Shown here: piece by piece, positions 782 through 17,622 of the stretch
Layout of the letters: each line of letters starts with the position of its first letter
How positions within the stretch are numbered: position 1 is the first letter of the stretch
Made by a program: the position numbers and the translations under genes
The notes under the pieces: generated by a model
What the model was told of the DNA's origin: nothing
What the model saw: the letters and a program-made list of their open reading frames with translations, nothing else
The model's database searches: none
DNA from: Spirochaetales bacterium
Lineage (GTDB): Bacteria > Spirochaetota > Spirochaetia > DSM-27196 > SLST01
Direction: 5' to 3'
Assembly: GCA_030642995.1 (NCBI GenBank)
Contig: DAOWMR010000015.1
Location: 1-17,622, forward strand
DNA: 17,622 nt

Positions 782-1702
782 GTGAAGAAATGGGTGGTTG
801 CCACCCGTCCATTTGCCCTGCCGGCTTCCACCATGCCGGTGATTTTCGGATTTGTACTGGCCGTTACCATCGGATCAGCAGCCCCCAACTGGGTTCTGTT
901 CTTGATCAGTTTGCCGGCTATGGCGATTCTGCATACCGGCGCCAATCTGCTGAATGATGCCTATGATTACCAAAAAGGAATCGATCGCCGTGTAAACCCC
1001 GTCAGCGGCGGCGTGGTCCGAAAGTGGATAACACCCCGCGAAGCCAAGGTAGCCGGATTCGCCTTTCTCCTGATCGGATTGTTGATGGGGTTGTACATAG
1101 TTTCGGTAGTAGGGATGGCAATCTTCTGGATTGGATTGATTGGTGTGTCTATTGGAATCCTGTATAGCTGGGGGCCGCTGCCGCTGAAATTCAATGCCCT
1201 TGGCGATCTGGCGGTATTCCTCAATTTCGGCGTTCTTGGAGCACTGGGGTCCTGGACGGTTCAGACCGGCTCAGTTTCCTGGGTACCTGCAATCTGGGCG
1301 ATGCCGATGTCGCTGCTGGTGGTGGCGATCCTGCATGCCAACAACTGGCGTGATATTGCGGATGACAGTGCATCCGGAATACGAACCATGGCCAATTTGC
1401 TGGGCGATCCGATTTCGGCACACTACTATTCGGTGCTGCTATTCGGCCCCTTCGCACTCATCATCCTACTGATCATCACCACACGGCTGGTCGATCTCGG
1501 ACCGGAGATGCCCTGGTCGTTTCTGGTAACGCTGCTTGCCGTCCCCGCTGCAATGAAACTCAACCGCAAGGGTCGCCGGAGACATACTTCCGAACAGCCG
1601 CTGGATTTCCTGGCCCTGGATGGAGCTACTGCACAATTCAATCTCCAGTTTGGATTGCTCGGCATTGCGGCCCTGATTATCGATGGTTATTTGCCGTTCT
1701 GA
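782..1702 (+). CDS. menA: 1,4-dihydroxy-2-naphthoate polyprenyltransferase (UbiA superfamily, MenA-like)
   Basis: 306-aa polytopic membrane protein. It has the first Asp-rich motif NDAYDYQKGID and a C-terminal motif HANNWRDIADDSASGIRTMANLLG that matches the MenA NxxNLRDIxxDxxxGKxTL(V)xxLG region. A GTG start at 782 was chosen by the ORF track. The SD spacing is short, so the exact start is uncertain. Confidence 0.75.
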   Translation: MKKWVVATRPFALPASTMPVIFGFVLAVTIGSAAPNWVLFLISLPAMAILHTGANLLNDAYDYQKGIDRRVNPVSGGVVRKWITPREAKVAGFAFLLIGLLMGLYIVSVVGMAIFWIGLIGVSIGILYSWGPLPLKFNALGDLAVFLNFGVLGALGSWTVQTGSVSWVPAIWAMPMSLLVVAILHANNWRDIADDSASGIRTMANLLGDPISAHYYSVLLFGPFALIILLIITTRLVDLGPEMPWSFLVTLLAVPAAMKLNRKGRRRHTSEQPLDFLALDGATAQFNLQFGLLGIAALIIDGYLPF

Positions 1703-1730
1703 GTTTCGTAACTGCGGGTGGTTCGATACA

Positions 1731-3407: not shown

Positions 3408-3442
3408 GCTCGCCGAGCCTCCGTGGCAGTGTAACTCTCACA

Positions 3443-4318
3443 TTAACCGCAGATACCCAGGAGAATTTCTCGGATCGGCCCGATATCATCATCATCCGAC
3501 GGGGAACCGAGTATGTGATCTTCGGAGAAGACTATCGAATCACGCAATTCGTCCTGAGCCTTCAGGGTCATCCTGTCATACATGAAGTGAACCTTGTTCG
3601 CCAGAGCCGTTTTGTCTCTGTTGCATTCTTCCCAGTTTGTCAGGATATTCGCATCGAAGTACGCCAGAGAATCAGCGTCGGTCACGACATCTGCCAGGTC
3701 GTTAAGGTTCAACGGCTGCTCAATTTCCGACTGCTTGAGCTGATTCATTCCGTCCTGCTTTTCTCCACCCAGTTCATGCCTGAGAATCAAATAGCGAAGG
3801 TCGTTCGCAAACCCGACGGGGAAATAGCAGCCGTTTCGGGATGCCTGATCAAGAAGTTCCTGCGCTCTTAACGACGAGTTGCGTGCATGTTCTTTCTTGT
3901 GCTCCCGGTAAGTTTCAGGATCGTGCCGTGCTTCCACTTCCCCCATTGTCATCTTGTGCGGGAAAGAGCGGTCTGAATCGTGGAGATGACCAGCGGTTCG
4001 GACGAGTTCAATCGCATACCCGCTAATCCTGAGTTTCATTCCGAGCCTCACGGCAGTTGCTGCGGTGATTTCGGCATGGAGGTAGTCTATGGTGCCGGTT
4101 GTGGGATTGGATATCCTGCTCTGAAGGTATTCGGCGGAAAGGAACTGCGCCCTGTGCAGGCGGATGATTTCGCGGACAGTGTCAGGGTGTATTGCGTCAA
4201 CTCTCACTTCTGGAATTGTGAACCCGATCAATTCCTCATATTTGCCGGCGAGGAAACTGAAGGTTGCGTCCGAAAGATGAAAGGCCTTGTTCTGAAGCGC
4301 TTTGAGTATTTCGTCCAA
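3443..4318 (-). CDS. hypothetical protein with HD-domain-like metal-binding motifs (putative phosphohydrolase)
   Basis: 291 aa, soluble, last gene of the minus-strand operon. Motifs are spaced as in the HD superfamily: DYLHAE, ~35 aa, GHLHDSDR, then RHD, HKKEH and a distal DADSLAYFD. It has a TTG start with a GGGAGA SD. The family call is tentative. Confidence 0.4.
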   Translation of the reverse strand: MDEILKALQNKAFHLSDATFSFLAGKYEELIGFTIPEVRVDAIHPDTVREIIRLHRAQFLSAEYLQSRISNPTTGTIDYLHAEITAATAVRLGMKLRISGYAIELVRTAGHLHDSDRSFPHKMTMGEVEARHDPETYREHKKEHARNSSLRAQELLDQASRNGCYFPVGFANDLRYLILRHELGGEKQDGMNQLKQSEIEQPLNLNDLADVVTDADSLAYFDANILTNWEECNRDKTALANKVHFMYDRMTLKAQDELRDSIVFSEDHILGSPSDDDDIGPIREILLGICG

Positions 4319-4370
4319 GCTATCTCCCGGTATGTATTCGCGAGACTACTCTCCCTGCATGTCTGCGACT

Positions 4371-4580
4371 CTACCTCACCAGCAGCCAGATCCCGACGCC
4401 GATCGCCGCGGCGCCGAAGATGTAGAAGAATATCGCAGTCCCTGTTTCACCGAGCACCTTGATGAATGCCTGAATCTTGCCCATGTTCCATATGCTCTGT
4501 GGCTTCTTGGTGAAGGTCAGAAAGAAAACGAACACGCCGTATAGAACCAGAAATATCCCCAGCAATGCCAAACCGTTCAT
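4371..4580 (-). CDS. small membrane protein (69 aa, two predicted TM helices)
   Basis: ORF MNGLALLGIFLVLYGVFVFF...AIFFYIFGAAAIGVGIWLLVR has two hydrophobic helices. It has a good SD (GAGGAG, 7-nt spacer). It sits between the ABC permease and the HD-like gene in the same orientation. Confidence 0.55.
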   Translation of the reverse strand: MNGLALLGIFLVLYGVFVFFLTFTKKPQSIWNMGKIQAFIKVLGETGTAIFFYIFGAAAIGVGIWLLVR

Positions 4581-4604
4581 ATGTCCACTCCTCTTCTCTG
4601 TTGA

Positions 4605-5609
4605 TTATTGTAGACCGTTCCTGATTCTCTTGTTCAGGAACAGAAAAACCAGCGCGGTAATTGCCAGAACGAAACCGCTGTTCCTGAGGATCAATCCCCA
4701 GGTCGCCTCGTTGAGAATGATAGCATCCAGTGCTTTGTAGGCCCAGTAGAAGGGCGACCAGTAGAGCGCGATTTGCCAGCTGTCCGAGAGGAAGATGGCG
4801 CCGAACACCGAGCCGAAAACGGGGATAAACACGATCTTCATACTTGCCACGGCCTCAATGGGTTCGGTGTTAACCACGCCGATGCTGAATCCGATGATGA
4901 TTCCGATAAATGCAACGCTGATGAAGGATAGGGCAACCATGCCGTAGTTGATGTGTTCGAATCCCAGTATCCAGACAATGCCGAAGGCTCCGACAATCGG
5001 CACCAAAAAGGCAATTACGCTCTTTCCTATGATGAACTCTGTCTTCGAGATGGGAGCGACATTGATTGCCGATAGCGTGTTGCTCATCTTCTCTTCAACA
5101 AGGTTCAGGGTGATCAGCATCCCGCCGAAAACCGCACAGAAGATGATGAGGAAATTTGCTCCGTGCTGTTTGAGCGGCGAGAGTTTCCAGCCGATGTCCG
5201 ATATCCGCACCTCAACGGGGAGAACGACACCCTCATTTTCCAGGGCGTTCACCACCGACTGCAGCATTTGGAGGCCACCAGTTGTCTCATTACCCTGCTG
5301 GATGATGGTGTAACCGTCCTGTGTATTGACCAGTCCGAAGAAATCGTCGGTCTTCCGCACGCGGGCGTTGATACGTTCGATGTCCTCCAGCACCTCTACC
5401 TTGCCGTACCCCTCCAGGTACTCAATCACGATGAGATCAACCGAAGGATCAACCGCAATATTGATCGTCGTCGAACCGGCTCCCGGGATAATGACCTTGA
5501 GGAGGAGGAGGGCAAGCAGGAACGGTGCAATGCTGATATACAGGATGAGAAAATCTCGGGTACCGCTCTTCAGGTCTCTGCGGGTTACCGCCAAGATTCT
5601 TTTCAACAT
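4605..5609 (-). CDS. ABC-2 family transporter permease (second permease)
   Basis: About 6 TM helices with a large first extracytoplasmic loop, typical of ABC-2 permeases. Start moved to ATG 5609 ([13 protein letters not shown]) with a GAGGAGAG SD. The track start at 5654 would overlap the upstream permease by 31 nt. Confidence 0.75.
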
Positions 5610-5623
5610 ATGGTTACTCTCCT

Positions 5624-6658
5624 CTATACCGTCAGAGTTTTCTTGAAGCGCCAATTTGACAGCAGAAAGAAAACAACTCCGGCCAGCGTGAAGCCGAGGA
5701 CGTTCGCGTAGATGTACCCTAGGTTGCCGGCCTCATACAGGGTCTCCCTGAATGCAAAGAGCATGGGATAGGAAGGCAGGATCCTGATGATCAGCGGAGA
5801 GAATGCGGGGTTGTAGTAGGACACCGCGGCGAAGGCGAGGACGATGATGCTCATGTACAGCCATCCCATCGCTTTTGTCATGGTGTTGAAGAAACTGGCG
5901 ATGAACAGCCCGAGCGCCGATCCAAAGACGTTCGTAGCGATCAACAGCAGAATGAGGTGCAGGTAGTGGGCCTTGAGTCCTGCGATAAACGCCGCTGCGA
6001 TCAACCCCGACAACAGCCCCGTTACCAGTATGACCCCCACCTTGCCCAGCAGGTAGTGCCAGACTTTGGCAGGAGTGACCGCGAATGCTCGTATCGTGCC
6101 TTCTTCCTTGTCCAGAAAGATGTATGAAGCGATGATAAACAGCCCCATGAACGCAGCGTTCAGCGCCAGGAAAACCGGAAGCATGTTCAGGCGGTCGGAC
6201 AGTTTTTCGACGTTGCCTTCGAGAGTCGTGACGGTTGTCACGTTCTCGTATCCCGGCATTTCTGCCGCGAACCCGGACTCAATCGAGGTTTTGATGATGT
6301 TCCGGAATTTCTCGTCCTCGTACCCCTGCAGGATGTAGTCATAGACGATTCTGCCGTCTTCCAGACCAACGGCCAGACCAACACTGCCGCGGTCATTCGC
6401 GAGTTCGGTTTCCACTTCCTCTCTGGAGGGCAGAAGAATGATGTCGTATCCCTCCTGGGTGAGAGATTCTTCGGCGGCGGCCTGATAGGGTCCTTCCAGA
6501 TCAAGATGCGCGTACACGGTCACCTTTGGCTCGAAATACTCAGGAACGGCAAGAAGCATGACCGCGACGAAAACAAGCGCAAAACCGATCTCGATGTAGA
6601 TATAGAATCCCTTCAGCGATAACTGCATGTCCTTAAGAAAACTGTAGAGCAGTTTCAT
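5624..6658 (-). CDS. ABC-2 family transporter permease (first permease)
   Basis: 344-aa polytopic membrane protein. It has an N-terminal TM helix, a ~150-aa extracytoplasmic loop and then 5 TM helices. Its start abuts the stop of the ABC ATPase gene (6660). Confidence 0.75.
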
Positions 6659-6659
6659 C

Positions 6660-7514
6660 TTACTGAAGCCCCTTGCCGGTCACCTTGATGAAGATCTCTT
6701 CCAGGGTCGCTTCTTTGGTGTGCATCATCTCCACCTTGCCGGAGTTGACGATGTCATTCAGGTGGTGCATGTCCTTTTCGTCGATGAATGACAGGCGCTC
6801 TTTCTTCACGTCGCCGTTGTCCCGGTATTCCACTTCCACGAGTTGTTCCCCGTGCTGGAGCTTGAGGTTTCTCGGGGAATCGATGAGCTTGATCTCGCCG
6901 TCGATGATGAATGCGACGCGGTCGCAGAGTTCATCGGCGACAAACATGTTGTGGGTAGTGAGGAACACCGTCGTTCCCTTTTCCTTCTCACCCTTCACGA
7001 TCTCCTTGATGACGCTTGCAATTGCCGGGTCCAGGCCGGTGGTCGGCTCGTCAAGGAACCACATTTCGGGACTGTTGAGCATGCTTCGTGCAAAAGTAAG
7101 CCGGTGCTTCATGCCCTTGGAGTATTCTCCTGCCCGCTGTGTTGCGACGTGGTCCAGACCAACAAGCTCGAGCAACTCCTTCGGGTCTCGGGTGGGCACG
7201 TCAAAGAGCCTCCGGTAGAACTCGAGGTTCTCCAGCCCCGTGAGCTTGCCGTACACGTTGGACTGTTCGAAGGAGACACCGATCTTGTTGAACATGGCCC
7301 GGGGTGCCTTCTTCACATCGTAGCCTGCGACGGTGACGTTTCCCTTCTGCAGTGGAAGAAGGCCGGTCATGACACCCTGGGTTGTGGATTTGCCGGCGCC
7401 CGAAGGCCCGAGGAATCCGAAAACCTCACCCTTGGCAATTTCGAAACTTGCGTCCCGTACTGCGTATTTCTCATTATGAGAATAGGAATGATACAGCCCT
7501 TCAACCCTGATCAT
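6660..7514 (-). CDS. ABC transporter ATP-binding protein (ABC-2/DrrA-like)
   Basis: Walker A GPSGAGKST, signature/Walker B YSKGMKHRLTFARSML..FLDEPTTGLD, H-loop TTH. Start ATG 7514 (MIRVEGLYHSY) with an AAGGAG SD. The track GTG at 7535 contains that SD and is therefore unlikely. The start overlaps the SPFH gene end by about 14 nt. Confidence 0.9.
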   Translation of the reverse strand: MIRVEGLYHSYSHNEKYAVRDASFEIAKGEVFGFLGPSGAGKSTTQGVMTGLLPLQKGNVTVAGYDVKKAPRAMFNKIGVSFEQSNVYGKLTGLENLEFYRRLFDVPTRDPKELLELVGLDHVATQRAGEYSKGMKHRLTFARSMLNSPEMWFLDEPTTGLDPAIASVIKEIVKGEKEKGTTVFLTTHNMFVADELCDRVAFIIDGEIKLIDSPRNLKLQHGEQLVEVEYRDNGDVKKERLSFIDEKDMHHLNDIVNSGKVEMMHTKEATLEEIFIKVTGKGLQ

Positions 7515-8655
7515 CGTTCTGCGACTCCTTTTCACTTGATTCTTCGTCTGCCGGATTCCCGGCCCCCGGCTCTTGTAGCACCTGCTTTCCGTATGCGCTC
7601 GCTCCGAGCACCGTTCCGATGTTCATCGATTCCAGAGCGGAAGCGGGCACCAGCACCAACCCGCCCTTGTCCCGCATGCTTTCGTATATCATGTTCATGG
7701 CCCGCAGTTGCAGCGCCACCGGATCATCCCGATATTGCTCCGCAGCCTTCTTGAACGCTCCGGCAATCTCCACCTCGGCCGAACCGAGAATGATGCGAGA
7801 GCCCCGCTCCCGTTCGGCCTGTGCCTGACGGCTGAGAGCGTCCTCGAGCTCCGAGGGAATCAGGATCTCCTTGAACTCGACGGAGATGATGGTGATTCCC
7901 CATGGGTTGGTCTTGGCATCGACGATCTGCTGGATCTCGCCGCCGAGCCTTTCTCGTTCGCTGAGCAGCGTGGTCAGATCATTTGAACCAATGCTTGCCC
8001 TGAGGGCAGTTTGTGCGCTGAGCGACACCGCCTCCTCGAAGTTCTCCACTTCGAGCACGGCTTTTTGCGCGTCCCAGACCATCCAGAAAGCCAGCGCGTC
8101 TACATTCACCGGGACGGTGTCCCGCGTGAGGCTCTTCTCCGCCGAAAAGTCTGTCACCCGGATTCTCGTATCCACATAGCTGGCGGCCGAATCGATGAGC
8201 GGAAACAGGAGCAGCGCGCCGGGGCCCCGCACCTTGTGGAACTTGCCCAGCCGCAACACGATGATTTTGTCCCACTGGCTGATTACCTCCACGCCCGGCG
8301 CGATGAGAAAGCCGATTGTCAGCACGGCTGCCGCATACTGCAGATCGGTGCCGAACACTACGGGCAGCACCGCCCAGATACCGGCGATGATGGCGATAAC
8401 CATCGGCCAGTACGGCAGGATAAACAATACGGCGGCGGCTGCGATGACTCCGGCGGCCAGGTACGACGTCGTCTCGGGGTCCGGGAGCGAGGTTATCAGT
8501 GCCTGAACTCCAAGACCGAGGGCGATGAAAACCAGGATGACCAACGCCGATATGGTGTTGAATCTGAAATGCCCCCGTTGGCGTCCGTTTGGATGAGTTT
8601 TCCTCTGTGCCGTAAACAGGTTCGAGTGAGACCCAATTGCCTTTGTCATGTTCAT
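7501..8655 (-). CDS. SPFH/band-7 (stomatin/prohibitin-like) domain protein with a ~130-aa polytopic N-terminal extension and an acidic C-terminal tail
   Basis: The core IIVLRLGKFHKVRGPGALLLFPLIDS...TRDTVPVNVDALAFW...ERERLGGEIQQIVDAKTNPWGITIISVEFKEI is a classic SPFH domain. The N-terminus has 3-4 hydrophobic helices. The C-terminus is PADEESSEKESQNDDQG. The start ATG overlaps the GntR stop (ATGA at 8652-8655). Confidence 0.8.
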   Translation of the reverse strand: MNMTKAIGSHSNLFTAQRKTHPNGRQRGHFRFNTISALVILVFIALGLGVQALITSLPDPETTSYLAAGVIAAAAVLFILPYWPMVIAIIAGIWAVLPVVFGTDLQYAAAVLTIGFLIAPGVEVISQWDKIIVLRLGKFHKVRGPGALLLFPLIDSAASYVDTRIRVTDFSAEKSLTRDTVPVNVDALAFWMVWDAQKAVLEVENFEEAVSLSAQTALRASIGSNDLTTLLSERERLGGEIQQIVDAKTNPWGITIISVEFKEILIPSELEDALSRQAQAERERGSRIILGSAEVEIAGAFKKAAEQYRDDPVALQLRAMNMIYESMRDKGGLVLVPASALESMNIGTVLGASAYGKQVLQEPGAGNPADEESSEKESQNDDQG

Positions 8656-9059
8656 GTGGTTGCATCCTCCTTGAGGATCGAGAGATACTCAGCCGCTTCA
8701 ACAACGCTGAATCCATACGAAGAAGCCGTGGCCAGGAAAGTGCGAACCAACCCCGCCAGAATCTGTTTACGTTCCTGGGCCGTAAGCTCGATTTTCTTCT
8801 CGCTGATGAAAGTGCCCGTACCCTGCTGCGTATTGACGATCCCGCGGATTTCCAGCTCGCTGTACGCCCGTGCGACGGTATTCGGGTTGATCTTCAGGTC
8901 CACCGCCAGGGCTCGCACCGTCGGCAATTGGTTTCCCGTCCGCAATCTGCCGTCGGCGATGGCCAATTGTGTCTGCATAATGATTTGCCGGTAGAAAGGA
9001 ACTCCGCTCGTCGGATCGAGGAGAAAATGAATACCGCCGGGTTGCCGTTCAGTTGTCAT
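8652..9059 (-). CDS. GntR-family transcriptional regulator, YtrA subfamily (short C-terminal domain)
   Basis: 135 aa. The N-terminal winged HTH (GVPFYRQIIMQTQLAIADGRLRTGNQLPTVRALAVDLKINPNTVARAYSELEIRGIV) is typical of GntR. The C-terminal region is very short (~50 aa), as in YtrA-type regulators that head ABC-transporter operons. It is the first gene of the 7-gene minus-strand operon. Confidence 0.85.
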   Translation of the reverse strand: MTTERQPGGIHFLLDPTSGVPFYRQIIMQTQLAIADGRLRTGNQLPTVRALAVDLKINPNTVARAYSELEIRGIVNTQQGTGTFISEKKIELTAQERKQILAGLVRTFLATASSYGFSVVEAAEYLSILKEDATT

Positions 9060-9073
9060 AGACCGAACCCCTG

Positions 9074-9095
9074 TTGTACTGAATCGTTAGTACAA
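9074..9095. promoter_or_regulatory. candidate GntR operator: inverted repeat TTGTACT-N8-AGTACAA. A third AGTACAAT half-site lies at 9164-9171 and overlaps the putative ctaB -10
   Basis: Perfect 7-bp inverted repeat with a GTAC core, as GntR-family operators commonly have. It lies just downstream of a putative minus-strand promoter (-35 TTGCTG at 9128..9123, 17-nt spacer, -10 TATACT at 9105..9100) and 15-36 nt upstream of the GntR start codon. Confidence 0.45.
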
Positions 9096-9222
9096 TAGAA
9101 GTATAGGGCAGGTTTCGATTTACAGCAAGTGTATTCTGCGTGGTGGCAGCAAGGTTAAATTCGAGTACAATTTCAAGGTCTGGATGCGCAACACCGCCGG
9201 ACAATCACACAGGGAAAATCGG

Positions 9223-10137
9223 ATGGCCACGCAACGACGAACCATTGACGACACACGCAAACATCTGACGGCCAAACTGCGTCTCTACTGGAAGCTGATC
9301 AAGAGTCTCCAGACCGGATTGCTCCTTGCGACCGGCGTGGCGGGCTTCATGAGCGCCCGTTGCCCGGCTCTGGACTGGCGGACGCTACTAGGCATGTCCG
9401 GCAGCCTGTTTCTGGCGATAAGCGGCAGCACCGTTCTCAACATGTGGTACGACCGCGACATCGACGCGAAAATGCTGCGCACGTATTGGCGCCCGTTGCC
9501 ATCAGGCGGGGTCAGCCCGCGTGAGACTGTCGTGCTCGGCCTTGTGCTTTCCATACTGGGAGTGGGGTGGGCCGTAGCTATGCAACCGCTCTACGGACTC
9601 GTTGTGTTTGCCGGGCTGTTCATTGACGTCGTGGTCTACACGATCTGGCTCAAACGACGCACCGCCTGGTCCATTGTGTGGGGTGGGATCTCCGGCGGGA
9701 TGCCGATCCTGGCCGGGCGGGTGCTTGGCATTGCCGCTCTGACGGGAGTGGGGCAGATTGACCTGATCGGAGTTTTGCTGTCGCTGGGGATACTGTTCTG
9801 GATTCCCACCCACATCATGACGTTCAACATGCGCTATCATGATGACTATCAGACCGCGGGCGTGCCCACGTTCCCCTTAGCCTACAGTTTTCAGATGACG
9901 CGGGTGACTATCGCGGTGTCCAGTCTCATTGCGGCTCTGACGATGGGTGGAGCAGTAATGCTTCTCGGCATGACCTGGGGATACTTGCGGTTGCTGGCTG
10001 TGCTCAGCACAGCGCTACTCCTGATGGCCGTCTACAGCGTGGCCCGTCCTTCAGAGAAGATGAACTTTGGTCTCTTCAAGTACGCATCGATCTACATGTT
10101 GAGTCTGATGCTCTTGCTCGTCCTGGGGGCGATATGA
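9223..10137 (+). CDS. ctaB: protoheme IX farnesyltransferase (heme O synthase)
   Basis: UbiA-family membrane protein with the diagnostic heme O synthase motif LNMWYDRDIDAKMLRTYWRPLPSGG (compare N-x-YIDRDID-x-KM-x-RT-x-xRxLxxG). ATG 9223 has an AGGGA SD and a putative -10 TACAAT at 9166-9171. The track start 9184 would leave almost no leader, so 9223 is preferred. Confidence 0.85.
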   Translation: MATQRRTIDDTRKHLTAKLRLYWKLIKSLQTGLLLATGVAGFMSARCPALDWRTLLGMSGSLFLAISGSTVLNMWYDRDIDAKMLRTYWRPLPSGGVSPRETVVLGLVLSILGVGWAVAMQPLYGLVVFAGLFIDVVVYTIWLKRRTAWSIVWGGISGGMPILAGRVLGIAALTGVGQIDLIGVLLSLGILFWIPTHIMTFNMRYHDDYQTAGVPTFPLAYSFQMTRVTIAVSSLIAALTMGGAVMLLGMTWGYLRLLAVLSTALLLMAVYSVARPSEKMNFGLFKYASIYMLSLMLLLVLGAI

Positions 10138-10739
10138 AAAAGATCTCCGTCCTTGACCGGATAGTGCTTCTGATCGTCGGAGTGTTAGCGGCCTATCAGA
10201 TAGTCGTGGGGATCGAGGGATTCTGCACGCTGACCGTCTTGTGCTACACGATCGCCTTCGGCGTGCTTATGTTCGCCGCGCTGCTGTTCATCATCTTTGG
10301 GTTTGACATCCTGGACAGCAAGCTGGTCGTCATCGTGGCTGCGACCATCCCGCTCATCTTGTCGCTGGCACTCATCGCTGAATATCTGCCGTCTGTCAGG
10401 ACGGTGTACATGGCGTTTGCCGTCGTCGGATTCGGTGCGCTTGCCGTCACCCGGTATACCGCCTCCGGTGCTGTTGCGACGGTCGTTCTGGCTACGGTAC
10501 ACGGGATCGCCGGGCTGTTGATCTTCAGCCTGCCGATCATTATTGCCGTGCAGGGAAAGACTTCGCCGGGCTTCGCGTTGGTGGGAGTCGGCGGGGCGTT
10601 AATTGGCACCGGCGGGTCGCTGCTCCTCTTCCTGAAATTGGGCAGGCCTATCCTGTCAAGAGATACGATTTTCACCGTGCTGCCCGTGTTGCTGCTGTTC
10701 ATGACGGCGGCATTCGTGGCCGGGTTGGCGATGCGGTGA
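10134..10739 (+). CDS. uncharacterised polytopic membrane protein (201 aa, ~6 TM), translationally coupled to ctaB
   Basis: Its ATG overlaps the ctaB TGA (ATGA at 10134-10137). The protein is hydrophobic throughout and has no recognisable catalytic motif. Confidence 0.5.
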   Translation: MKKISVLDRIVLLIVGVLAAYQIVVGIEGFCTLTVLCYTIAFGVLMFAALLFIIFGFDILDSKLVVIVAATIPLILSLALIAEYLPSVRTVYMAFAVVGFGALAVTRYTASGAVATVVLATVHGIAGLLIFSLPIIIAVQGKTSPGFALVGVGGALIGTGGSLLLFLKLGRPILSRDTIFTVLPVLLLFMTAAFVAGLAMR

Positions 10740-10748
10740 GGGATTGAG

Positions 10749-11180
10749 ATGGTTGGGAATGAACGCCGGCTCTATGCACTGGCAGGGATCATGTGGAGTG
10801 GCGTCGGTGGCTACCTGGTTTTTCTGGCTTATGGTTGGCTCAAGGCGTTACCCTCATTACGTACCGTTCTTCTCGCAATCGCAGCGGTTCTATTTGCGCT
10901 GGTGATCTACCGTTTTGGCTTCTCTAATCTTGCGAAGAAGAACATCAAACGCATTTCGCTGCTCGAAGGCCGAGTATTCATCTGGGCATTTCAGAGTTGG
11001 CAAAGCTACATCATTATCCCGGTTATGATCGGTTTGGGCATCTTTCTCCGTAACTCACCGCTGCCAAAGCAGTATCTGGCCATCATGTACATCGGCATTG
11101 GTGGCGGCTTATTCTTGTCGAGCCTGCACTACTATGTTTGGCTCGTGCGACCATCTGAGTTGGAAAGGAGTGATGAGTGA
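10749..11180 (+). CDS. uncharacterised membrane protein (143 aa, ~4 TM)
   Basis: A hydrophobic ORF 10 nt downstream of the previous gene with a GAGGGA SD. No family recognised. Confidence 0.45.
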   Translation: MVGNERRLYALAGIMWSGVGGYLVFLAYGWLKALPSLRTVLLAIAAVLFALVIYRFGFSNLAKKNIKRISLLEGRVFIWAFQSWQSYIIIPVMIGLGIFLRNSPLPKQYLAIMYIGIGGGLFLSSLHYYVWLVRPSELERSDE

Positions 11181-11857
11181 TGAATACAATGGCCAAGATC
11201 TTGTGGGTGATCGCAATCATACTGATTGGACTGACGGCGGCAATAACGCTGGTGAGCGGCATCGGTACGTACTGCGTTGCCTGGAACGCCGAGCAATACG
11301 CGGAATTTGCCAACTTTGAGCCGTACAAACCGCTCTACAAGGCGATTGTCGTTCTCACGATTATGGTCGCGCTCGTTGCTGTCGTGGATGTTTATGGCAT
11401 GATACGACGCAAGAAGTGGGCGTACCTGGCCACGCTGTTCACGCTGATCGCAGGTATTGTCGTGGGTGGTACGCACGTGTATTACTCGACCATGTTGCGG
11501 GGAACCGGTATGCCGGGTACCGTCCGGGTTTATCTCTCAGTACTCACACTCGTCGTCCTGCTATTGCTGCGGATTCCCGGCATCTGGCAGGCGATCAACT
11601 CCGGGAAACCATCTGCGGGATCGGGGGCTGGAACGGCAGCCGGTCTGGCGATGAGTGTGTGTGGATTGGCCGTCGTTGCGACGCCCATGTGGGCCGGCCC
11701 GACGCATACTTCTGCCGGCTACAATTGGGTGAATGTCCTGTTGGTGCCCCTGATTGTGGGTGGCGTGGTGTTGATGCTGGCGGGGATAAGTCTGTTGGTG
11801 TTTCCCAAACTGCAAGTGCGTATCGGGAAGCGTCCCCAACCAGTCACGGCACATTAG
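11180..11857 (+). CDS. uncharacterised membrane protein (225 aa, ~6 TM, Gly/Ala-rich central loop)
   Basis: ATG 11180 has an AAGGAG SD (9-nt spacer) and overlaps the upstream TGA by 1 nt. The track GTG start is at 11177. Its stop TAG (11855-11857) overlaps the stop TAA (11856..11854) of the convergent FGE-like gene. Confidence 0.5.
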   Translation: MNTMAKILWVIAIILIGLTAAITLVSGIGTYCVAWNAEQYAEFANFEPYKPLYKAIVVLTIMVALVAVVDVYGMIRRKKWAYLATLFTLIAGIVVGGTHVYYSTMLRGTGMPGTVRVYLSVLTLVVLLLLRIPGIWQAINSGKPSAGSGAGTAAGLAMSVCGLAVVATPMWAGPTHTSAGYNWVNVLLVPLIVGGVVLMLAGISLLVFPKLQVRIGKRPQPVTAH

Positions 11858-12819
11858 GGATTGCGAGCACAACGGAATCCAACTGCCGGACCATAGTACA
11901 CCGGCCCGGCGCTATTCTGTTTCCAGACACGCAGATCCATTTCATAGGTATAAAAACTGCCGCCGCGCATATGACGATAATGCTGGTTCGAGAAATCATC
12001 TCCAACCCACTGCCAGACATTCCCGGCCATGTCATAGAGGCCGTACGGGCTGGCCGAATCGAGTGTTTCGTAATCTTCGTAGGTGTCACCGTTGTAGAAA
12101 CCCACGGGAGTGGTATTGCCCAGCTTCCCAAACATCTTTTCGAACAAGTCGAAAGAAGAATAGGAATTGGCGTTGTTGCCATGAATTTCAGTGCCCCAGG
12201 GGAAAGGCAATCCATACCCGTCCACTAGTTTGGTACCACGAGCGGCTTTCTCCCATTCGGTATCACTGGGGAGCCGCCAACCGTAGAACTCGGCGTACGC
12301 ATTGGCGCCGAACCATGAGACCATTGTCATGGGGTGATTGGCGTATTCAGGGATTGCTGTGAATGATTGCCCATTAAAGGTCAACCGCAAGCCTTCTTCA
12401 TCCAGCGGGATGTAGAGTTTGTCCCCGGCCTTGATTTCAAACTCGTGCTTGTAACCCTGGAAAGGTTCGCCTGCATAGAAACCATACACACCTTCAAGAA
12501 CCGCAACGGATTCCCCGAACTCAACTTCCACCTCACCCACACCAATCTCGCCGGCAGCCAAAGCTTCGTTGAGAAAATCGGCATACTGTTGGTTGGTTAC
12601 GTCGGTGACCATGATCTCATAGTCGTAGTCGACCATGGTCATGTGATCGTGCTGCCCGTAGGGGAACTCACCGGCGGGAATGACAGCCCAGGAATCGGGG
12701 TCAATCCCGGTATCGATAGAGGGCGGTACAATTGCTCCGACGCTGGATGTCGGCGTACAGGCGGTTGTCAACAAAGCAAGCACCGTAAGCAAGATCATGA
12801 GATGTATCAAACGTTTCAT
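11854..12819 (-). CDS. formylglycine-generating-enzyme (FGE/SUMF1) family domain lipoprotein
   Basis: FGE-sulfatase domain signatures: WAVIPAGEFPYG, VTNQQYADFLN, GWRLPSDTEWEKAARG, YDMAGNVWQWVGD, RGGSFY, VGFRCARNP. There is an N-terminal signal peptide with a lipobox-like LLTTAC. Its ATG overlaps the stop of the upstream membrane protein (ATGA at 12816-12819). Confidence 0.85.
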   Translation of the reverse strand: MKRLIHLMILLTVLALLTTACTPTSSVGAIVPPSIDTGIDPDSWAVIPAGEFPYGQHDHMTMVDYDYEIMVTDVTNQQYADFLNEALAAGEIGVGEVEVEFGESVAVLEGVYGFYAGEPFQGYKHEFEIKAGDKLYIPLDEEGLRLTFNGQSFTAIPEYANHPMTMVSWFGANAYAEFYGWRLPSDTEWEKAARGTKLVDGYGLPFPWGTEIHGNNANSYSSFDLFEKMFGKLGNTTPVGFYNGDTYEDYETLDSASPYGLYDMAGNVWQWVGDDFSNQHYRHMRGGSFYTYEMDLRVWKQNSAGPVYYGPAVGFRCARNP

Positions 12820-14357
12820 TCTGACACCCCCTTCAGGGTTTCTTCGAGTTTTTCCAGTTTTCGCTTCTGTTCTGCGATTTCAGACTCGGCGCTGAGTTTC
12901 GTCTCAGCCGCCAGTTCCTGCGCCCAGCGGCCGTTCCTGGTGAGGAGATCGTACAATCGCCACAGCATGAAGACACACAGAATGATGAGCACAACCCCCA
13001 GGCCGATATCGGTCAACAGCATGGTCCAGTTGACGATGGATTGCTGCGCAACTTCGGTGACGAAGAGGCGCTTCATCGAAAAGATAGTCACCGCGCCAAA
13101 AGCCAGATCGGACATCAGGATCAATACCCACCCGAACCATTTGCGGGCTTTGCCCTTCAGGCCCGACAGATCCGCGAAATACATCAGGATGATGGTTGCG
13201 ATCAGCGCTGCGAGGATGTGCCAGTGTCCGGTAAGGGTGACCCGTTCTTCCCGATGCGGCCAGACACGGAATATCTCCTCCAATTTGACTGCCAGAAAAA
13301 TGCCAACGCCACTGACGGTAAAATTCATGAAGACCATCTGCCAACCCGGGCCGAACTTCAACGGGTCGTGCAGGAGCGCCTTGATTTTCTGCCAGGCGTT
13401 GGGTTTTTCGATACCCAGTTCCGCGATGCGATTCTTGATTTGTTGATCCCAGGAGAAGATCACATATAGCAGGGCGGCTGTCATCACCAGGACGGACCCA
13501 ATATAGATGATGTTGTGTGCCCACGTGAACCACACAATGGACAGCGCGCCAATCGTGATCACAATTGTGCCGGAAATCATCAGCCACATGGCGATCTTGT
13601 GGAAGATCCCTTTGAACTTCATCCAGCGGCCCACAATCAATGTGAGGGCGACCGCGATCAGGGTCAGCATGATATGCAGGTGGCCTACAATGGCCTTCTG
13701 CAAAGCTGTCTTCAGGGGGATGCGGATCAGGTCTTCCGCCAGGAAGGTTTCGTGGCCGTTACCCCAATACGAGCCGGTCACCGCGCCAAAAGAAGCGGAG
13801 ATCAACGCGGCAGCAACCATCACGAAGAAGGCGGCTCGCTCCAGATCAATACCTTTCCGGGTGTGTGCGTAGGGCGAATCCTCCGGCAAGAGGTATTCCT
13901 TTTTCCAGGGCCACAACGCGGCGCCTAACAGCAAACCCGCGAAGAAGACTAACGACTGGCCAACCAGGAACAGACCGTGGTAGACGAAATTGTGGCCAAA
14001 GTAGCCAAAGATCAAGCCGAAAATGATAGCCGTCAAATAGCCGATGGTGATGGTGGTGTTGATCATGGTCTGTTCGTGTTTTTTCATCGGCACCATACCG
14101 GTGATGAAATACACTTCAATTGCCAGGATCGTCATGGCAATGGTGTGATAGAGCATGATGATTCGCCCTTCACGTTCAGCCTGAACCAAATCCATATTGA
14201 GGAGGCGGACGGTGATGTCTCTGACACCCCATTCGACCATCGGGCCGGAGAGCGTTCCCCAGACGGCGGTTGCCACCGCAACGACAGCCATTGCGACCAG
14301 CGCCAATCCCTTGGTCGAAGTGAAGAGATAGGTAAGTCGTTTTTTTAGTCCTTGCAT
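12816..14357 (-). CDS. uncharacterised 12-TM histidine-rich integral membrane protein with a C-terminal coiled-coil tail
   Basis: 513 aa from ATG 14357 (GGAGG SD, 7-nt spacer). The track TTG start is at 14381. Twelve hydrophobic helices are predicted. Intramembrane or helix-edge histidines occur at TM2 (LYHTIAM), after TM3 (GHNFVYHG), TM6 (GHLHIML), after TM7 (AHN) and at TM10 (GHWHIL). The C-terminus ELAAETKLSAESEIAEQKRKLEKLEETLKGVSE is a charged heptad-like region. No named family recognised. Confidence 0.6.
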   Translation of the reverse strand: MQGLKKRLTYLFTSTKGLALVAMAVVAVATAVWGTLSGPMVEWGVRDITVRLLNMDLVQAEREGRIIMLYHTIAMTILAIEVYFITGMVPMKKHEQTMINTTITIGYLTAIIFGLIFGYFGHNFVYHGLFLVGQSLVFFAGLLLGAALWPWKKEYLLPEDSPYAHTRKGIDLERAAFFVMVAAALISASFGAVTGSYWGNGHETFLAEDLIRIPLKTALQKAIVGHLHIMLTLIAVALTLIVGRWMKFKGIFHKIAMWLMISGTIVITIGALSIVWFTWAHNIIYIGSVLVMTAALLYVIFSWDQQIKNRIAELGIEKPNAWQKIKALLHDPLKFGPGWQMVFMNFTVSGVGIFLAVKLEEIFRVWPHREERVTLTGHWHILAALIATIILMYFADLSGLKGKARKWFGWVLILMSDLAFGAVTIFSMKRLFVTEVAQQSIVNWTMLLTDIGLGVVLIILCVFMLWRLYDLLTRNGRWAQELAAETKLSAESEIAEQKRKLEKLEETLKGVSE

Positions 14358-14439
14358 ATCTATGCCTCCAAATAGGGACAAACAGTCAACTTGATTGTGA
14401 AAGGTTCCACGAAGTTATCATGAAATATCGAGAGAGTCC

Positions 14440-14453
14440 TTGACCAAGGTCAA
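14440..14453. promoter_or_regulatory. perfect 14-bp palindrome TTGACCAAGGTCAA (operator copy 1) with a conserved flank, upstream of the histidine-rich membrane protein gene
   Basis: TTGACC-AA-GGTCAA is a perfect inverted repeat, 89 nt upstream of ATG 14357. Its left half could double as a -35 (TTGACC, 18-nt spacer, GATATT on the minus strand). A second copy is at 16257-16270. Confidence 0.6.
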
Positions 14454-14469
14454 GTTCCAAGGAAACCAC

Positions 14470-14497
14470 CCCCTCTCCGGCAAGAACCAGAGAGGGG
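14470..14497 (-). terminator. candidate rho-independent terminator for the upstream two-gene minus-strand unit
   Basis: GC-rich stem CCCCTCTCCGG / CCAGAGAGGGG (11 bp, one mismatch) with a 6-nt loop. On the minus-strand transcript it is followed by GUGGUUUCCUUGG (a weak U-tract). It lies 46 nt downstream of the stop at 14544 and just upstream of the operator/promoter for the next gene. Confidence 0.4.
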
Positions 14498-14543
14498 CGA
14501 TCTCGCGGGCGAAGGCAGAAGAAGGATTTACCCTGACTTCAGA

Positions 14544-15341
14544 TCAACTTTCGTGTTCACCGGAGTCTGCAATCAGCTTCTGTGTGCCTGGCAGCAAGAT
14601 GATGACAAGAAGCACCGTGCTGATAACCGGAGCCGGCAAGAACATTGAGAATCGACCCAATTGCACCGTGTTGGTGATTCCCATCGGGTAAGCACCCATC
14701 ATGGACATCATGGCTGCAAAAACACCCAACGGCACAGTCCACTTCTTCTTCTTGAGGACAGCAAAGATGAACATTGCCCAGGCGGCGGCGCCCCACCAGG
14801 TAACTTGCTGCGACATGGCAAACATACCGTTCATGAAGCTATCGTCCACGGACAACTGGAAATAGGCAATCACGCCGACCCCGTCCATAAACGTCAAGAC
14901 ATATGCCAAACCGGCCACAAAGAGCAGGGCGATGACCTTCATTTTGACACGGCCAATCAGCAGCATACCAAACCATAGAACGGTCGCCAGCAGGAAGACC
15001 CAAATCGTGGGAAAAGGCATCCCGATGCTGGAGGGTGGGATGATCGGGAAAAAGCCGACAAGCATCTGGACGGTGGCCGCCACAGTACCCCAGAACCAGG
15101 CCCATTCCAGTTTTTTCACGAAGCCGTAGAGCACGGCCCCCCACAATGCGCCGGCAGTTATGCCCAGCCAGCCAAGCAGGGCGAAGACGATCTGAACAGT
15201 AACGGCTTCATCCGGGCGACCACCGGCAATTTTGCCCGCAATGGTCGGGTTGTAGATGTCCGCCATCAAGTAGAATGTCAGCAATCCGGTCAGGACACCG
15301 ACTATGGCGAGTACAATACCGAGCTTATTGTTTCCTTTCAT
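14544..15341 (-). CDS. uncharacterised Trp-rich polytopic membrane protein (265 aa, ~8 TM), paralog of the upstream gene
   Basis: ATG 15341 has a GGAGA SD (6-nt spacer), 8 nt after the upstream stop. The track start is at 15362. It shares N-terminal VLAIVGVLTGLL, central K-EW-F, GMPFPT, TWW and KKKKW with the 15352-16188 product (VLAIVIGLL, KGEEW, GFPIP, TWW, KRKGWW). Confidence 0.55.
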   Translation of the reverse strand: MKGNNKLGIVLAIVGVLTGLLTFYLMADIYNPTIAGKIAGGRPDEAVTVQIVFALLGWLGITAGALWGAVLYGFVKKLEWAWFWGTVAATVQMLVGFFPIIPPSSIGMPFPTIWVFLLATVLWFGMLLIGRVKMKVIALLFVAGLAYVLTFMDGVGVIAYFQLSVDDSFMNGMFAMSQQVTWWGAAAWAMFIFAVLKKKKWTVPLGVFAAMMSMMGAYPMGITNTVQLGRFSMFLPAPVISTVLLVIILLPGTQKLIADSGEHES

Positions 15342-15351
15342 GATGATTCTC

Positions 15352-16188
15352 CTATTGATCATCCTTGATCAGCTTCTTCTTGAAATACGGAACCAACGTG
15401 AAGAAAAGGACGCCGATGGACAACAGTGCACCGTAAAGATAGTCCATCGTCTTCGTGCGGATAAACTGCGTGGGGGCGTCAATCGCCAGGATGGCAACCG
15501 CAGCAATGACGGCAAACCACCAGCCTTTGCGTTTGCCGACAGCCAACAGCGGAATGGAGATGACCAGCAGGATAACCGCCACCCAGTTAACCTCACCGGC
15601 CCAGCTGAACAACCACCACGTGAAGTCCTGATACATGGGATATCCAGGGCGGGTCCACATGGTTCGCTGGGCGCCAATACCGATGGTGAAGGCGTGAGTA
15701 GCCAACATGCCGATGAAAGTCAGGGCGCCGAAACGAGTCCACTTTTGCATTCTTTCGGCCTTGCGCAGGAAAATGAAGCTCCAATAACCTACCAGACCAG
15801 TGACCGAAATCAACAGCGGGATCGGGAAGCCGTCCACCCAACTGACGTACGGGAGGAACATGAACATACCGCCAATTGCAGGCAGCGCAAACAGAGTTAC
15901 GGCAAGCGGATAGGTCCACTCTTCGCCTTTCCTGATTTCTTGTGAGATCACGATCAGGGCGGCGCCTGCGACAAAAATGACGGCTCGCCAGATCGGATAG
16001 AAGAAATCAAAGAGCGGAATCCCGCTTTCAAACGTGGGGTGACCGGCGTTGATATGATCGATCAACCCGACCAATACTCGTTCAAGCGATTTCTGGACGA
16101 TGAAAGGGACCACGCCCACCATCAACAGGCCAATAACAATGGCGAGAACCGACATGACCGTTCGGTTTTTCTGTGAAGTTTCTTTCAT
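15352..16188 (-). CDS. uncharacterised Trp-rich polytopic membrane protein (278 aa, ~8 TM), paralog of the downstream gene
   Basis: ATG 16188 (MKETSQKN) has an AGGAGAG SD (7-nt spacer). The track start at 16227 lacks an SD. The protein is hydrophobic and has a DHINAGHPTFESG loop. See the paralog evidence above. Confidence 0.55.
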   Translation of the reverse strand: MKETSQKNRTVMSVLAIVIGLLMVGVVPFIVQKSLERVLVGLIDHINAGHPTFESGIPLFDFFYPIWRAVIFVAGAALIVISQEIRKGEEWTYPLAVTLFALPAIGGMFMFLPYVSWVDGFPIPLLISVTGLVGYWSFIFLRKAERMQKWTRFGALTFIGMLATHAFTIGIGAQRTMWTRPGYPMYQDFTWWLFSWAGEVNWVAVILLVISIPLLAVGKRKGWWFAVIAAVAILAIDAPTQFIRTKTMDYLYGALLSIGVLFFTLVPYFKKKLIKDDQ

Positions 16189-16256
16189 TTTCACTCTCCT
16201 AGGAAAAAAATTGCGTTCTAGTGTCATGAGAATCGCAGATAAATTCGAAAGAGTAA

Positions 16257-16270
16257 TTGACCCAGGTCAA
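16257..16270. promoter_or_regulatory. perfect 14-bp palindrome TTGACCCAGGTCAA (operator copy 2) in the divergent region between the membrane-protein unit and the RpiR gene
   Basis: It has the same TTGACC-N2-GGTCAA architecture as 14440-14453. The 17 nt on its low-coordinate side (tcgaaagagtaa) resemble the flank of copy 1 (tcgagagagtcc). Over 31 nt the two copies are 24/31 identical. It lies 75 nt upstream of ATG 16188. Confidence 0.6.
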
Positions 16271-16373
16271 TCGCGGGGGCAGCACGATCAACGCCGACGG
16301 GCGACATCATCCCCCAAAACAGAAATAAAACTTGCAGTGATTGAGCAAGAAGAAAGAAACTTTCCAAAAATCG

Positions 16374-16403
16374 TTGACAAAGGAATATTTCGGTACCCAT
16401 AAT
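16374..16403 (+). promoter_or_regulatory. sigma70-like promoter for the RpiR gene (TTGACA-N18-CATAAT)
   Basis: TTGACA at 16374-16379 and CATAAT at 16398-16403. The predicted transcription start is ~25 nt upstream of ATG 16438. Motif-based only. Confidence 0.4.
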
Positions 16404-16437
16404 GGGAAACACCGAAAGAGAACGGGAAGGAACCGAA

Positions 16438-17328
16438 ATGATAACAAAATCAGACAGCTATCATCAGATCATTGAAGTATATGACGATCTGTCTAGACAG
16501 CAGAAGAAGATTGCTGATGGGATCATCAATCGGTGCGACGAGATCGTCTTCTTTTCAATTACCCAGCTCGCGAATTTTCTCGGGGTGAGCGAAGCTACGA
16601 TTGTCCGGTTTGCTCAGCATCTGGGGCACAAGGGCTTCCCCGAACTGAAGGAAGACCTGGTGAAGTACTACCGGGAATATCTTACTCCCGGGGCACGGAT
16701 GAGACGATCCATTGAAGAATTCCCCGATGACCCTCTTCTGTATAAGAGCCATGCGGCACGTGAGATACAGCTGCTGGAGGAATCGCTCCAGGCAGTTGAC
16801 AACGATAGTTTTGTTCAAGCTGTTGAAGCGATCGTTCAGGCCGAGCGGATATTTCTTTTCGGTAACGGAGGGAATGAATGCCTTGCCAATCATCTCACCT
16901 TTCGTCTCTCCCGTTTCAAGTTGAAAGCCATACAGCAATCCGTTTCGGGAAAAAATCTCTTTGAAAAATTCCTGCAGATAGAAAAGAGCGATCTCATAAT
17001 CGCCTATCATTTCTATAAACCAACAATAGACTTCAGGCGGCTCATGGAGGTGAGTGCTGAACGGGAGGTTCCTGTTCTCCTCATGACTGATTCCCTCGTG
17101 CCGCCGATGATTCGTCACGCCAAAATCGTTCTTTTTGCTCCGAGGGGCTCAGCCGGGACCTTCCATTCTCAGGTTGTCCCAATGGCCATCAACAACGCCC
17201 TGATAAATGGCGTAGCCAGCAAGCTCGGGAACAAGGCTGTGAAGGCATTACAGGAGTTGAGTGATATGAGGCAAAAACATTATTTCAGTGACTTTTCCTC
17301 ACTGATATCACATGAAAACGATCAATGA
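16438..17328 (+). CDS. RpiR/MurR-family transcriptional regulator (N-terminal HTH_6 + C-terminal SIS domain)
   Basis: The HTH FSITQLANFLGVSEATIVRFAQHLGHKGFPELK is characteristic of RpiR. The C-terminal region (IFLFGNGGNECLANHL...) is SIS-like. ATG 16438 (MITKSDSY) with a GGAAGG SD gives 296 aa, typical for the family. The track start at 16402 adds 12 aa. Confidence 0.85.
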   Translation: MITKSDSYHQIIEVYDDLSRQQKKIADGIINRCDEIVFFSITQLANFLGVSEATIVRFAQHLGHKGFPELKEDLVKYYREYLTPGARMRRSIEEFPDDPLLYKSHAAREIQLLEESLQAVDNDSFVQAVEAIVQAERIFLFGNGGNECLANHLTFRLSRFKLKAIQQSVSGKNLFEKFLQIEKSDLIIAYHFYKPTIDFRRLMEVSAEREVPVLLMTDSLVPPMIRHAKIVLFAPRGSAGTFHSQVVPMAINNALINGVASKLGNKAVKALQELSDMRQKHYFSDFSSLISHENDQ

Positions 17329-17622
17329 ACCACGAAATTCTCCTCGGCGCAGTTTGCTATCAGGAGTATTCCAGAGACTATCTTGATTTTCTTGAACTAG
17401 CGGCCGAGCTCAAACTCTCCTGGGTCGAGTTCAAATACGAACCACCTCTCTGTTATCGAAGTAGATCGCGCAGATATGTCGATATTCGGAAACAGGCTGA
17501 TGATTTCGGAATCAACCTGTCCATGCACACCGCATTTGACGGTTTGAATATCGCCTCCCTGGATGACAAGGAGCGAGCCCGGTCTCTTGATACTGTACAG
17601 GAGTCGATTGATGCAGCTGCGC
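17325..17622 (+). CDS. sugar phosphate isomerase/epimerase (xylose-isomerase-like TIM barrel) family protein, N-terminal part only
   Basis: Hand translation from ATG 17325 gives MNHEILLGAVCYQEYSRDYLDFLELAAELKLSWVEFKY...ADDFGINLSMHTAFDGLNIASLDDKERARSLDTVQESIDAA, a typical AP-endonuclease-2/xylose-isomerase-like barrel N-terminus. The ATG overlaps the RpiR TGA (ATGA). The ORF runs to the window end, so the track did not list it. Confidence 0.6.
   Translation, partial: MNHEILLGAVCYQEYSRDYLDFLELAAELKLSWVEFKYEPPLCYRSRSRRYVDIRKQADDFGINLSMHTAFDGLNIASLDDKERARSLDTVQESIDAAA

Follow-up and report, generated by a model that had tools for sequence, protein, structure and literature searches.

A family of 12-helix membrane proteins with seven invariant histidines, a predicted heme-copper oxidase subunit I fold and a conserved heme O synthase-like neighbor

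The window analyzed here is a stretch of 17,622 nt from a Spirochaetales bacterium (assembly GCA_030642995.1, contig DAOWMR010000015.1, positions 1 to 17,622). Its minus strand contains, at positions 12816–14357, an open reading frame (ORF) for a 513-aa protein with 12 transmembrane helices (TM) and seven invariant histidines, predicted to adopt the fold of subunit I of the heme-copper oxidoreductases (HCOs). TM12His is used as a working name for the product. The ATG start codon at position 14357 has a GGAGG 8 nt upstream, and the homolog alignments begin at residue 1. Hydropathy and an AlphaFold2 model agree on 12 transmembrane helices, the number called in an earlier note that was made from the sequence alone, and on a C-terminal helix (residues 477–512; 12822–12929). 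Lysine and arginine residues in the loops number 14 on the predicted inside and 6 on the outside. This favors an N-terminus-in topology, so that the even-numbered helices run from outside to inside; the charged C-terminal helix is cytoplasmic. The C-terminal tail had been singled out as unusual in the earlier note; it is real, but restricted to the close subfamily of 511–513 aa, and distant homologs of 413–505 aa lack it.

The seven histidines are found 1–12 residues from the outer ends of TM2, TM4, TM6, TM8 and TM10. H71 (codon 14145–14147) is part of TM2, and H127 (codon 13977–13979), the second histidine of the motif GHNFVYHG, is located at the start of TM4. H226-L-H228 (codons 13680–13682 and 13674–13676) forms the outer start of TM6, H281 (codon 13515–13517) occupies the 4-residue turn between TM7 and TM8, and H378-W379-H380 (codons 13218–13226) forms the outer start of TM10. 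All seven are invariant in an alignment of 117 sequences that reaches down to ~26% identity. H71, H226, H228, H281, H378 and H380 are likewise invariant among the most distant full-length relatives (alignment of 16 sequences). Other residues invariant in the 117 sequences are R65, Y70, G106, Y119, E208, L227, G263, G287, G352, E371, W379, L382 and W410, and the histidines H94, H122, H165, H202 (in GNGHE), H253, H330 and H368 (in WPHRE) are variable. The earlier note had placed histidines in TM2, in an H-x-H of TM6, after TM7 and in the H-W-H of TM10; this placement is correct, and all six are invariant. Conservation of the histidines among homologs was the check that it had set beforehand, and its proposal withstands it, as the helix histidines are invariant family-wide. 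With respect to the loop histidines that it listed, H127 proved invariant and lies at the start of TM4, while those in GNGHE, WPHRE and the other loops vary.

More than 3188 homologs of TM12His were found. The nearest 120 are 72–88% identical, 511–513 aa long and mostly derived from metagenome-assembled genomes (MAGs) of Anaerolineales; the names attached to them are all "hypothetical" or spurious automatic ones. Among 50%-identity representatives, an exhaustive search returned no more than 294 clusters, which marks the family as compact. A profile of distant members detects 30–40% identical proteins in Hod-, Kari-, Heimdall-, Thor-, Odin- and Promethearchaeota and in other Anaerolineae. In a genome scan, relatives were found in at least 565 species genomes, including Calditrichia, Melioribacteraceae/Ignavibacteria, Neomarinimicrobiota, Caldilineales and Ardenticatenaceae at 64–75% identity. 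Across the loci from Calditrichia, Melioribacteraceae, Ignavibacteria and Neomarinimicrobiota (L068–L084), the entire gene cluster is 64–71% identical at the protein level between phyla. Such identity implies either that the cluster was transferred horizontally or that it is very strongly constrained; mis-binning of MAGs may contribute, as the nearest relative is labelled Spirochaetales. Searches of Pfam (2025 copy), NCBIfam (2026) and PDB sequences gave no match for TM12His, for 15 distant relatives or for the family profile, and the searchable literature contained nothing relevant on the family, on clusters of heme O synthase with proteins related to formylglycine-generating enzyme (FGE), or on internal triplication in oxidases. 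The family, for which no curated entry exists in these three collections, is probably undescribed.

The AlphaFold2 model, computed from the family alignment, has a predicted local distance difference test (pLDDT) value of 92.5 and a predicted template modeling (pTM) score of 0.92. It shows a 12-helix core in a pseudo-threefold arrangement, as in HCO subunit I. The best structural hits are CcoN of cbb3 oxidase (3MK7_A, score 21.9), NorB of the cytochrome c-type nitric oxide reductase (cNOR; 4XYD_A, 21.6), mitochondrial COX1 (20.9), ba3 oxidase (20.8) and CyoB of bo3 oxidase (1FFT_A, 20.4). These are followed by other A-type oxidases (19.8–20.3) and two quinol-type nitric oxide reductases (qNORs; 17.2 and 12.1); the next, unrelated hit scores 11.5. 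The hits to oxidases span 366–414 aligned residues at 6–10% identity. Foldseek is concordant, with a probability of 1.00 and TM-scores of 0.50–0.54. A structural comparison, as the earlier note had proposed, places oxidases on top. The same note had named a transporter fold as the outcome that would speak against it. The structural hits contain no transporter, and an MFS or APC fold, as in some automatic JGI names, is ruled out for TM12His.

The pseudo-threefold symmetry of oxidase subunit I is known structurally. To look for repeats in TM12His, thirds of the family alignment were compared as profiles by hhalign, with reversed controls. TM5–8 and TM9–12 match with a probability of 96.2% (E 2.6e-9, score 58, reversed control 16.6), TM1–4 and TM9–12 with 82.8% (E 9e-6, score 37.7, reversed control 13.1), and TM1–4 and TM5–8 with 10% (E 0.003, score 24, reversed control 13.6). 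Judged by these profile comparisons, TM12His is a sequence-detectable triplication of a four-helix unit. Repeat 1 covers residues 10–155 (TM1–4; 13893–14330, minus strand) with R65, Y70, H71, Y119 and H127, repeat 2 residues 165–312 (TM5–8; 13422–13865, minus strand) with E208, H226, H228 and H281, and repeat 3 residues 325–475 (TM9–12; 12933–13385, minus strand) with E371, H378-W379-H380 and W410. The repeat alignment equates GH226LH228 with GH378WH380 and YH71 with WH380; the equivalence of H127 and H281 comes from the weak comparison of TM1–4 with TM5–8. The identical test on seven canonical A-family oxidases yielded nothing (probability ≤1%).

To characterize the gene neighborhood, the window proteins were compared by tblastn with 85 fetched loci; most absences among these loci are contigs that end too early. 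The cluster typically lies on one strand in the order TM12His, FGE-like gene, heme O synthase-like UbiA gene, m201 and sometimes then m226. The first four genes keep this order in nearly all bacterial loci of sufficient length. The FGE-like gene is syntenic in 79 of the 85 loci, the UbiA gene in at least 77 and m201 in 68. The block UbiA-m201-m143-m226, co-directional in most loci, is inverted in the window and in its nearest relative, where the end of the block overlaps the end of the FGE-like gene. The start codon of the FGE-like gene and the stop codon of TM12His overlap as well (ATGA).

The FGE-like gene (11854–12819, minus strand) encodes a protein of the FGE-sulfatase fold (PF03781, E 2e-36) that carries an N-terminal signal or lipobox segment and is membrane-anchored or a lipoprotein. 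H125-E126, H162 and H280 are invariant in it. True FGEs have a copper-binding catalytic cysteine pair after an RGGS motif. In the FGE-like proteins the corresponding motif reads RGGSFYxYExDLRVW, and the only cysteines are Cys21 of the signal/lipobox segment and the one in GFRC317. As the cysteine pair is missing in all 77 orthologs, the protein is not a formylglycine-generating enzyme, and a true copper-dependent FGE is ruled out for this partner. It may bind a metal or dock on the outer face of TM12His. The FGE fold family also includes NirV. NirV accompanies the nitrite reductase NirK in ~61% of nirK genomes (PMC4770552). An FGE-sulfatase-fold protein encoded beside the gene of a metalloenzyme of oxygen or nitrogen-oxide metabolism thus offers a loose precedent for the arrangement at 11854–12819, although the partner is here a membrane protein of oxidase fold and not NirK.

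The UbiA prenyltransferase gene (9184–10137, plus strand) is CtaB/CyoE-like. Its product scores 205.2 bits against the heme O synthase model TIGR01473, for which the cutoff is 210.3 bits, and the next family follows at 56 bits; the syntenic UbiA of Hodarchaeales, with 218.6 bits, is above the cutoff. The window protein shares 29% identity with E. coli CyoE (E 4e-18) as well as the motif DRDID..M.RT. No canonical oxidase gene was found in the window or within 10 kb in any of the 85 loci, so TM12His is the only oxidase-fold neighbor of the heme O synthase-like gene. The earlier note had read the neighborhood as respiratory or heme-related on account of ctaB, menA and an FNR-like box. With regard to ctaB, this reading has gained strength, since synteny of the ctaB-like gene with TM12His is conserved in at least 77 of the 85 loci and in Asgard archaea; the menA-like gene (782–1702) is present in the window and syntenic in none of the 85.

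The third partner, m201 (10134–10739, plus strand), encodes a conserved 7-TM protein that is also found in Asgard archaea. The m201 family has more than 1200 members, no Pfam match and invariant R107 and H123. The predicted structure is a confident but generic 7-helix bundle without a specific structural relative. Elsewhere, m201-like genes are located at 7193–7927 of L001, 7204–7851 of L003 and 5311–5985 of L094.

In Asgard archaea, the order m201-like gene, TM12His, UbiA is found in loci from Hodarchaeales, Thorarchaeota and Heimdallarchaeota. The Odinarchaeota locus lacks both partners and carries Ccm genes and a gene for an NrfA-like multiheme cytochrome. An HxlR-family regulator gene is present near the TM12His loci of Thor-, Heimdall- and Odinarchaeota; in three of the four Asgard loci examined (L003, L093 and L094) it directly precedes the m201-like/12-TM genes, in divergent orientation. 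In the Hodarchaeales locus (L001), a gene for a CobW-type metallochaperone is encoded two genes downstream. According to a study of Asgard archaea (bioRxiv 10.1101/2024.07.04.601786), heme O biosynthesis is encoded in every Heimdallarchaeia lineage, and the CtaB-like genes beside TM12His in Hod- and Heimdallarchaeia loci fit this. Among distant bacterial homologs, the loci L005 and L095 have hemerythrin, ferredoxin, methyltransferase and DUF166 genes in common; in addition, L005 encodes a hybrid-cluster protein, and L095 one of the ODP/flavodiiron-like type. This gene set looks like an island for O2 or nitric oxide (NO) stress.

Compared with subunit I of known HCOs (CcoN, NorB, COX1, ba3 and CyoB), TM12His is alike in its predicted N-terminus-in topology and in having, near the outer face, a histidine on helix II, an H-x-H on helix X, a histidine on helix VI and one at the VII/VIII junction. 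As in the cyoABCDE operon, it is genetically linked to a heme O synthase-type gene. H71 and H378-W-H380 correspond to the heme ligands of HCOs, namely a helix II histidine and the helix X H-x-H, at the level of helix and motif only. For a CuB or FeB site, HCOs have one histidine on helix VI and an HH pair at the end of helix VII. TM12His has an H-x-H on TM6 and a single histidine at the VII/VIII junction, the residue after H281 not being histidine; three histidines are still present in the TM6–TM8 region, in a 2+1 pattern instead of 1+2. The His-Tyr cross-link of A- and B-family O2 reductases (HPEVY) has no counterpart, since TM6 reads GHLHIMLTL and contains no tyrosine; the earlier note had already stated that HPEVY and the helix VII HH are missing. 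Further differences are the extra invariant histidine on helix IV, the internal repeat that is detectable in the sequence, and the partners, an FGE-fold lipoprotein and a 7-TM protein.

Alignments to HCO profiles were made with three sets of seven sequences each (A-family, NOR and C-family), taken from E. coli cyoB and plasmid-borne genes. In the non-significant alignment to the A-family profile, H378 and H380 fall exactly on H419 and H421 of CyoB, which ligate heme o3 and heme b, respectively, H281 coincides with the CuB ligand H333, the CuB ligand H284 lies between H226 and H228, and H71 is placed on the same helix as H106 at a distance of 7 residues. The NOR alignment, likewise non-significant, puts H71, H226, H378 and H380 on the histidines of helices II, VI and X, with the HH of NOR ~10 residues before H281. 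The agreement of the ligand register in two of the three alignments is suggestive.

Taken together, we consider it the best reading, with a probability of roughly 0.55, that TM12His serves as catalytic-type subunit in a so far undescribed relative of the HCO superfamily, one that has diverged deeply. The gene contexts of the distant homologs, with hemerythrin, ODP/flavodiiron-like, hybrid-cluster, ferredoxin, Ccm and NrfA-like genes, and a local Fnr-type box also speak for it. Its novelty lies in combining the oxidase fold with ligands that depart from the canonical set, with new partners and with an internal triplication that can still be seen. The invariant histidines, the oxidase-like fold and the ctaB-like synteny also support the view of the earlier note that this is a divergent or new cofactor-binding membrane protein, the cofactors themselves being predicted from these features.

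Several results weigh against this reading. PF00115 (COX1) gave no match at E≤10 for TM12His or at E≤1 for the 15 distant relatives, and the family profile found no oxidase among PDB sequences. None of the hhalign comparisons with the A-family, NOR and C-family profiles exceeded a probability of 1.1%, and the reversed control, at 21.8, came close to the real score of 25.5, so that there is no significant similarity to HCOs; an attempt to prove HCO homology at the sequence level thus failed. In the C-family register only H71 falls on its counterpart, the helix II histidine, and the remainder is shifted by one whole repeat. The canonical ligand set is not reproduced, as the helix VII HH and the HPEVY tyrosine are lacking and additional histidines are found on TM4 and TM6. 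No Pfam domain of an electron-entry subunit (CuA cupredoxin subunit II, NorC, CcoO or cytochrome c) was detected in the window genes, and the polytopic conserved neighbors have no c-heme motifs. The 117-sequence alignment contains no conserved mid-membrane carboxylate or lysine that would suggest a proton channel. Finally, many of the host lineages are described as anaerobic fermenters. A canonical but misannotated COX1, NorB or NnrS is ruled out by the lack of profile matches. NnrS, a NO-responsive heme/copper membrane protein, is likewise a polytopic, histidine-bearing membrane protein, and TM12His has a possible O2/NO-stress setting; the resemblance drawn in the earlier note finds no backing in PF05940, which matched neither TM12His (E≤10) nor the 15 distant relatives (E≤1).

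If TM12His is a divergent relative of the HCOs, H71 on TM2 and H380 on TM10 would hold a low-spin heme, and H378 on TM10 a high-spin heme, probably heme O supplied by the neighboring UbiA protein. H226 or H228 on TM6, together with H281 in the TM7–TM8 turn, may hold a non-heme copper or iron beside the high-spin heme; H127 and the remaining TM6 histidine could provide a further site, located in the third pore. The protein would then use quinol or another electron donor to reduce a small oxidant, O2 or NO, in the outer half of the membrane, protons probably being taken from the outer side. The FGE-fold lipoprotein without catalytic cysteines and the 7-TM protein m201 may serve as accessory or assembly subunits. 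The role might be detoxification or micro-oxic respiration in largely anaerobic hosts. As there is no His-Tyr motif, there are no proton-channel residues and some neighborhoods resemble O2/NO-stress islands, a non-pumping, detoxifying reductase seems somewhat more likely than an energy-conserving oxidase.

Other explanations were weighed against the same data. CtaA/Cox15, the heme A synthase, is built of repeated four-helix units as well, with histidines on the second and fourth helix of each unit, and TM12His could be its functional analogue, a heme-processing or heme-handling protein that takes heme O and oxidizes, modifies or chaperones it via bis-histidine sites. Four conserved histidines (H1–H4) of CtaA are located on helices II, IV, VI and VIII (PMC12808453), a pattern echoed by the invariant H71, H127, H226/H228 and H281, although this is a resemblance only. 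The adjacency to a ctaB-type gene mirrors the classical ctaA-ctaB pairing, the four-helix units are duplicated in both proteins, and canonical oxidases are not among the traits known from hosts such as Thor- and Odinarchaeia. On the other hand, PF02628 does not match TM12His, which has 12 helices instead of the 8 of CtaA, its third repeat with the invariant H-W-H of oxidase helix X type has no CtaA counterpart, and its structural neighbors are oxidases. We regard a role of this kind as unlikely. An equally doubtful explanation is convergence, that is, an independent triplication of a four-helix histidine module that binds other cofactors, such as three hemes or a metal held on the pseudo-threefold axis by H71, H228 and H380, and whose chemistry is unrelated to the reduction of O2 or NO. 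It would account for the clear internal repeat in TM12His that is undetectable in the seven A-family oxidases, for the lack of a significant sequence link to HCOs, and for histidines that follow the repeat symmetry, H71, H228 and H380 being equivalent, as are H127 and H281. It leaves unexplained why the helix X H-x-H and the helix II histidine are the same as in HCOs and why the linked gene is of the heme O synthase type, the known product of which serves oxidases.

A non-redox function, in which the histidines form the permeation or binding site of a transporter, sensor or scaffold for heme or a metal (copper, zinc or iron), appears the least probable of these, and decidedly so. The position of the histidine cluster near the outer face, the extracytoplasmic FGE-fold partner and the CobW-type metallochaperone gene in L001 would suit it, but the structural hits include no transporter fold, the seven invariant histidines are placed as in oxidases, including the helix X motif, and the conserved linkage is to a heme O synthase-like gene and not to genes of metal homeostasis.

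Further genes near TM12His encode polytopic membrane proteins. The genes m143 (10749–11180) and m226 (11177–11857), both on the plus strand and coding for small proteins, are variably syntenic and are found in 13 and 39 of the 85 loci, respectively. Upstream, the overlapping genes up272 (14544–15362) and up291 (15352–16227) on the minus strand encode further polytopic membrane proteins and have counterparts nearby in 37 and 28 of the 85 loci; they may be additional subunits. None of the four products matched Pfam or NCBIfam.

A perfect Crp/Fnr-type palindrome (TTGACCAAGGTCAA, 14440–14453) is located in the TM12His promoter region, ~85 bp upstream of the ATG, and a second one (TTGACCCAGGTCAA, 16257–16270) ~30 bp upstream of the up291 start. 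Both are perfect copies of TTGAC-N4-GTCAA, of which ~0.2 are expected in the whole window; the background frequency in related loci is 0.013 per kb. The FNR-like box that the earlier note reported upstream of the gene thus exists, but is not a family trait: of 83 scorable loci, only 2 have such a box upstream, namely L006, which is the nearest relative, and L080, and this rules it out as a family-wide regulator. The two palindromes suggest a small local regulon in the lineage of the window only. Between the up272 stop codon and the TM12His promoter, a GC-rich hairpin (CCCCTCTC...GAGAGGGG) is present at 14470–14500 on the minus strand. It was not called by the consensus scan and looks like a terminator that separates two transcription units.

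The rest of the window is unrelated in synteny. On the plus strand (782–3407), the menA-like prenyltransferase gene overlaps the start of a malic enzyme gene (574 aa) by 20 bp, and neither is syntenic elsewhere. A 291-aa ORF (3443–4318, minus strand) without Pfam match or predicted transmembrane helix encodes 13 histidines and 3 cysteines; its product could be a soluble metal-binding protein. Co-directional genes at 4605–9059 on the minus strand, unrelated to TM12His, encode a GntR regulator, a Band7/SPFH protein, an ABC ATPase and two ABC-2 permeases. With 0 of 85 loci each, menA, malic enzyme, ABC-2 transporter, Band7, GntR and RpiR are ruled out as parts of the system; the ABC ATPase was found in 9 of 85 loci, which stems from generic similarity.

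Almost all aerobic respiration is the work of HCOs, as is much of the NO reduction in biology, and their origin and deepest branches are long-standing questions. The TM12His family extends over several bacterial phyla and at least five Asgard lineages. Should TM12His bind hemes and a metal, the HCO superfamily would gain a new branch or a sister group. More tentatively, the family might be a "proto-oxidase" lineage, a heme/metal enzyme that still shows the triplicated four-helix histidine module ancestral to the HCO fold; Chloroflexota, other anaerobic phyla and Asgard archaea would then have in common a new respiratory or detoxifying system by which O2 or NO is reduced and which has a heme O supply of its own as well as novel accessory subunits. 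If true, this would provide direct sequence evidence on the origin of the 12-helix fold. Heme O synthesis genes in genomes of Anaerolineae and Asgard archaea are currently taken as markers of canonical oxidases, and the inference of O2 and NO tolerance from the genomes of these "anaerobic" organisms would change.

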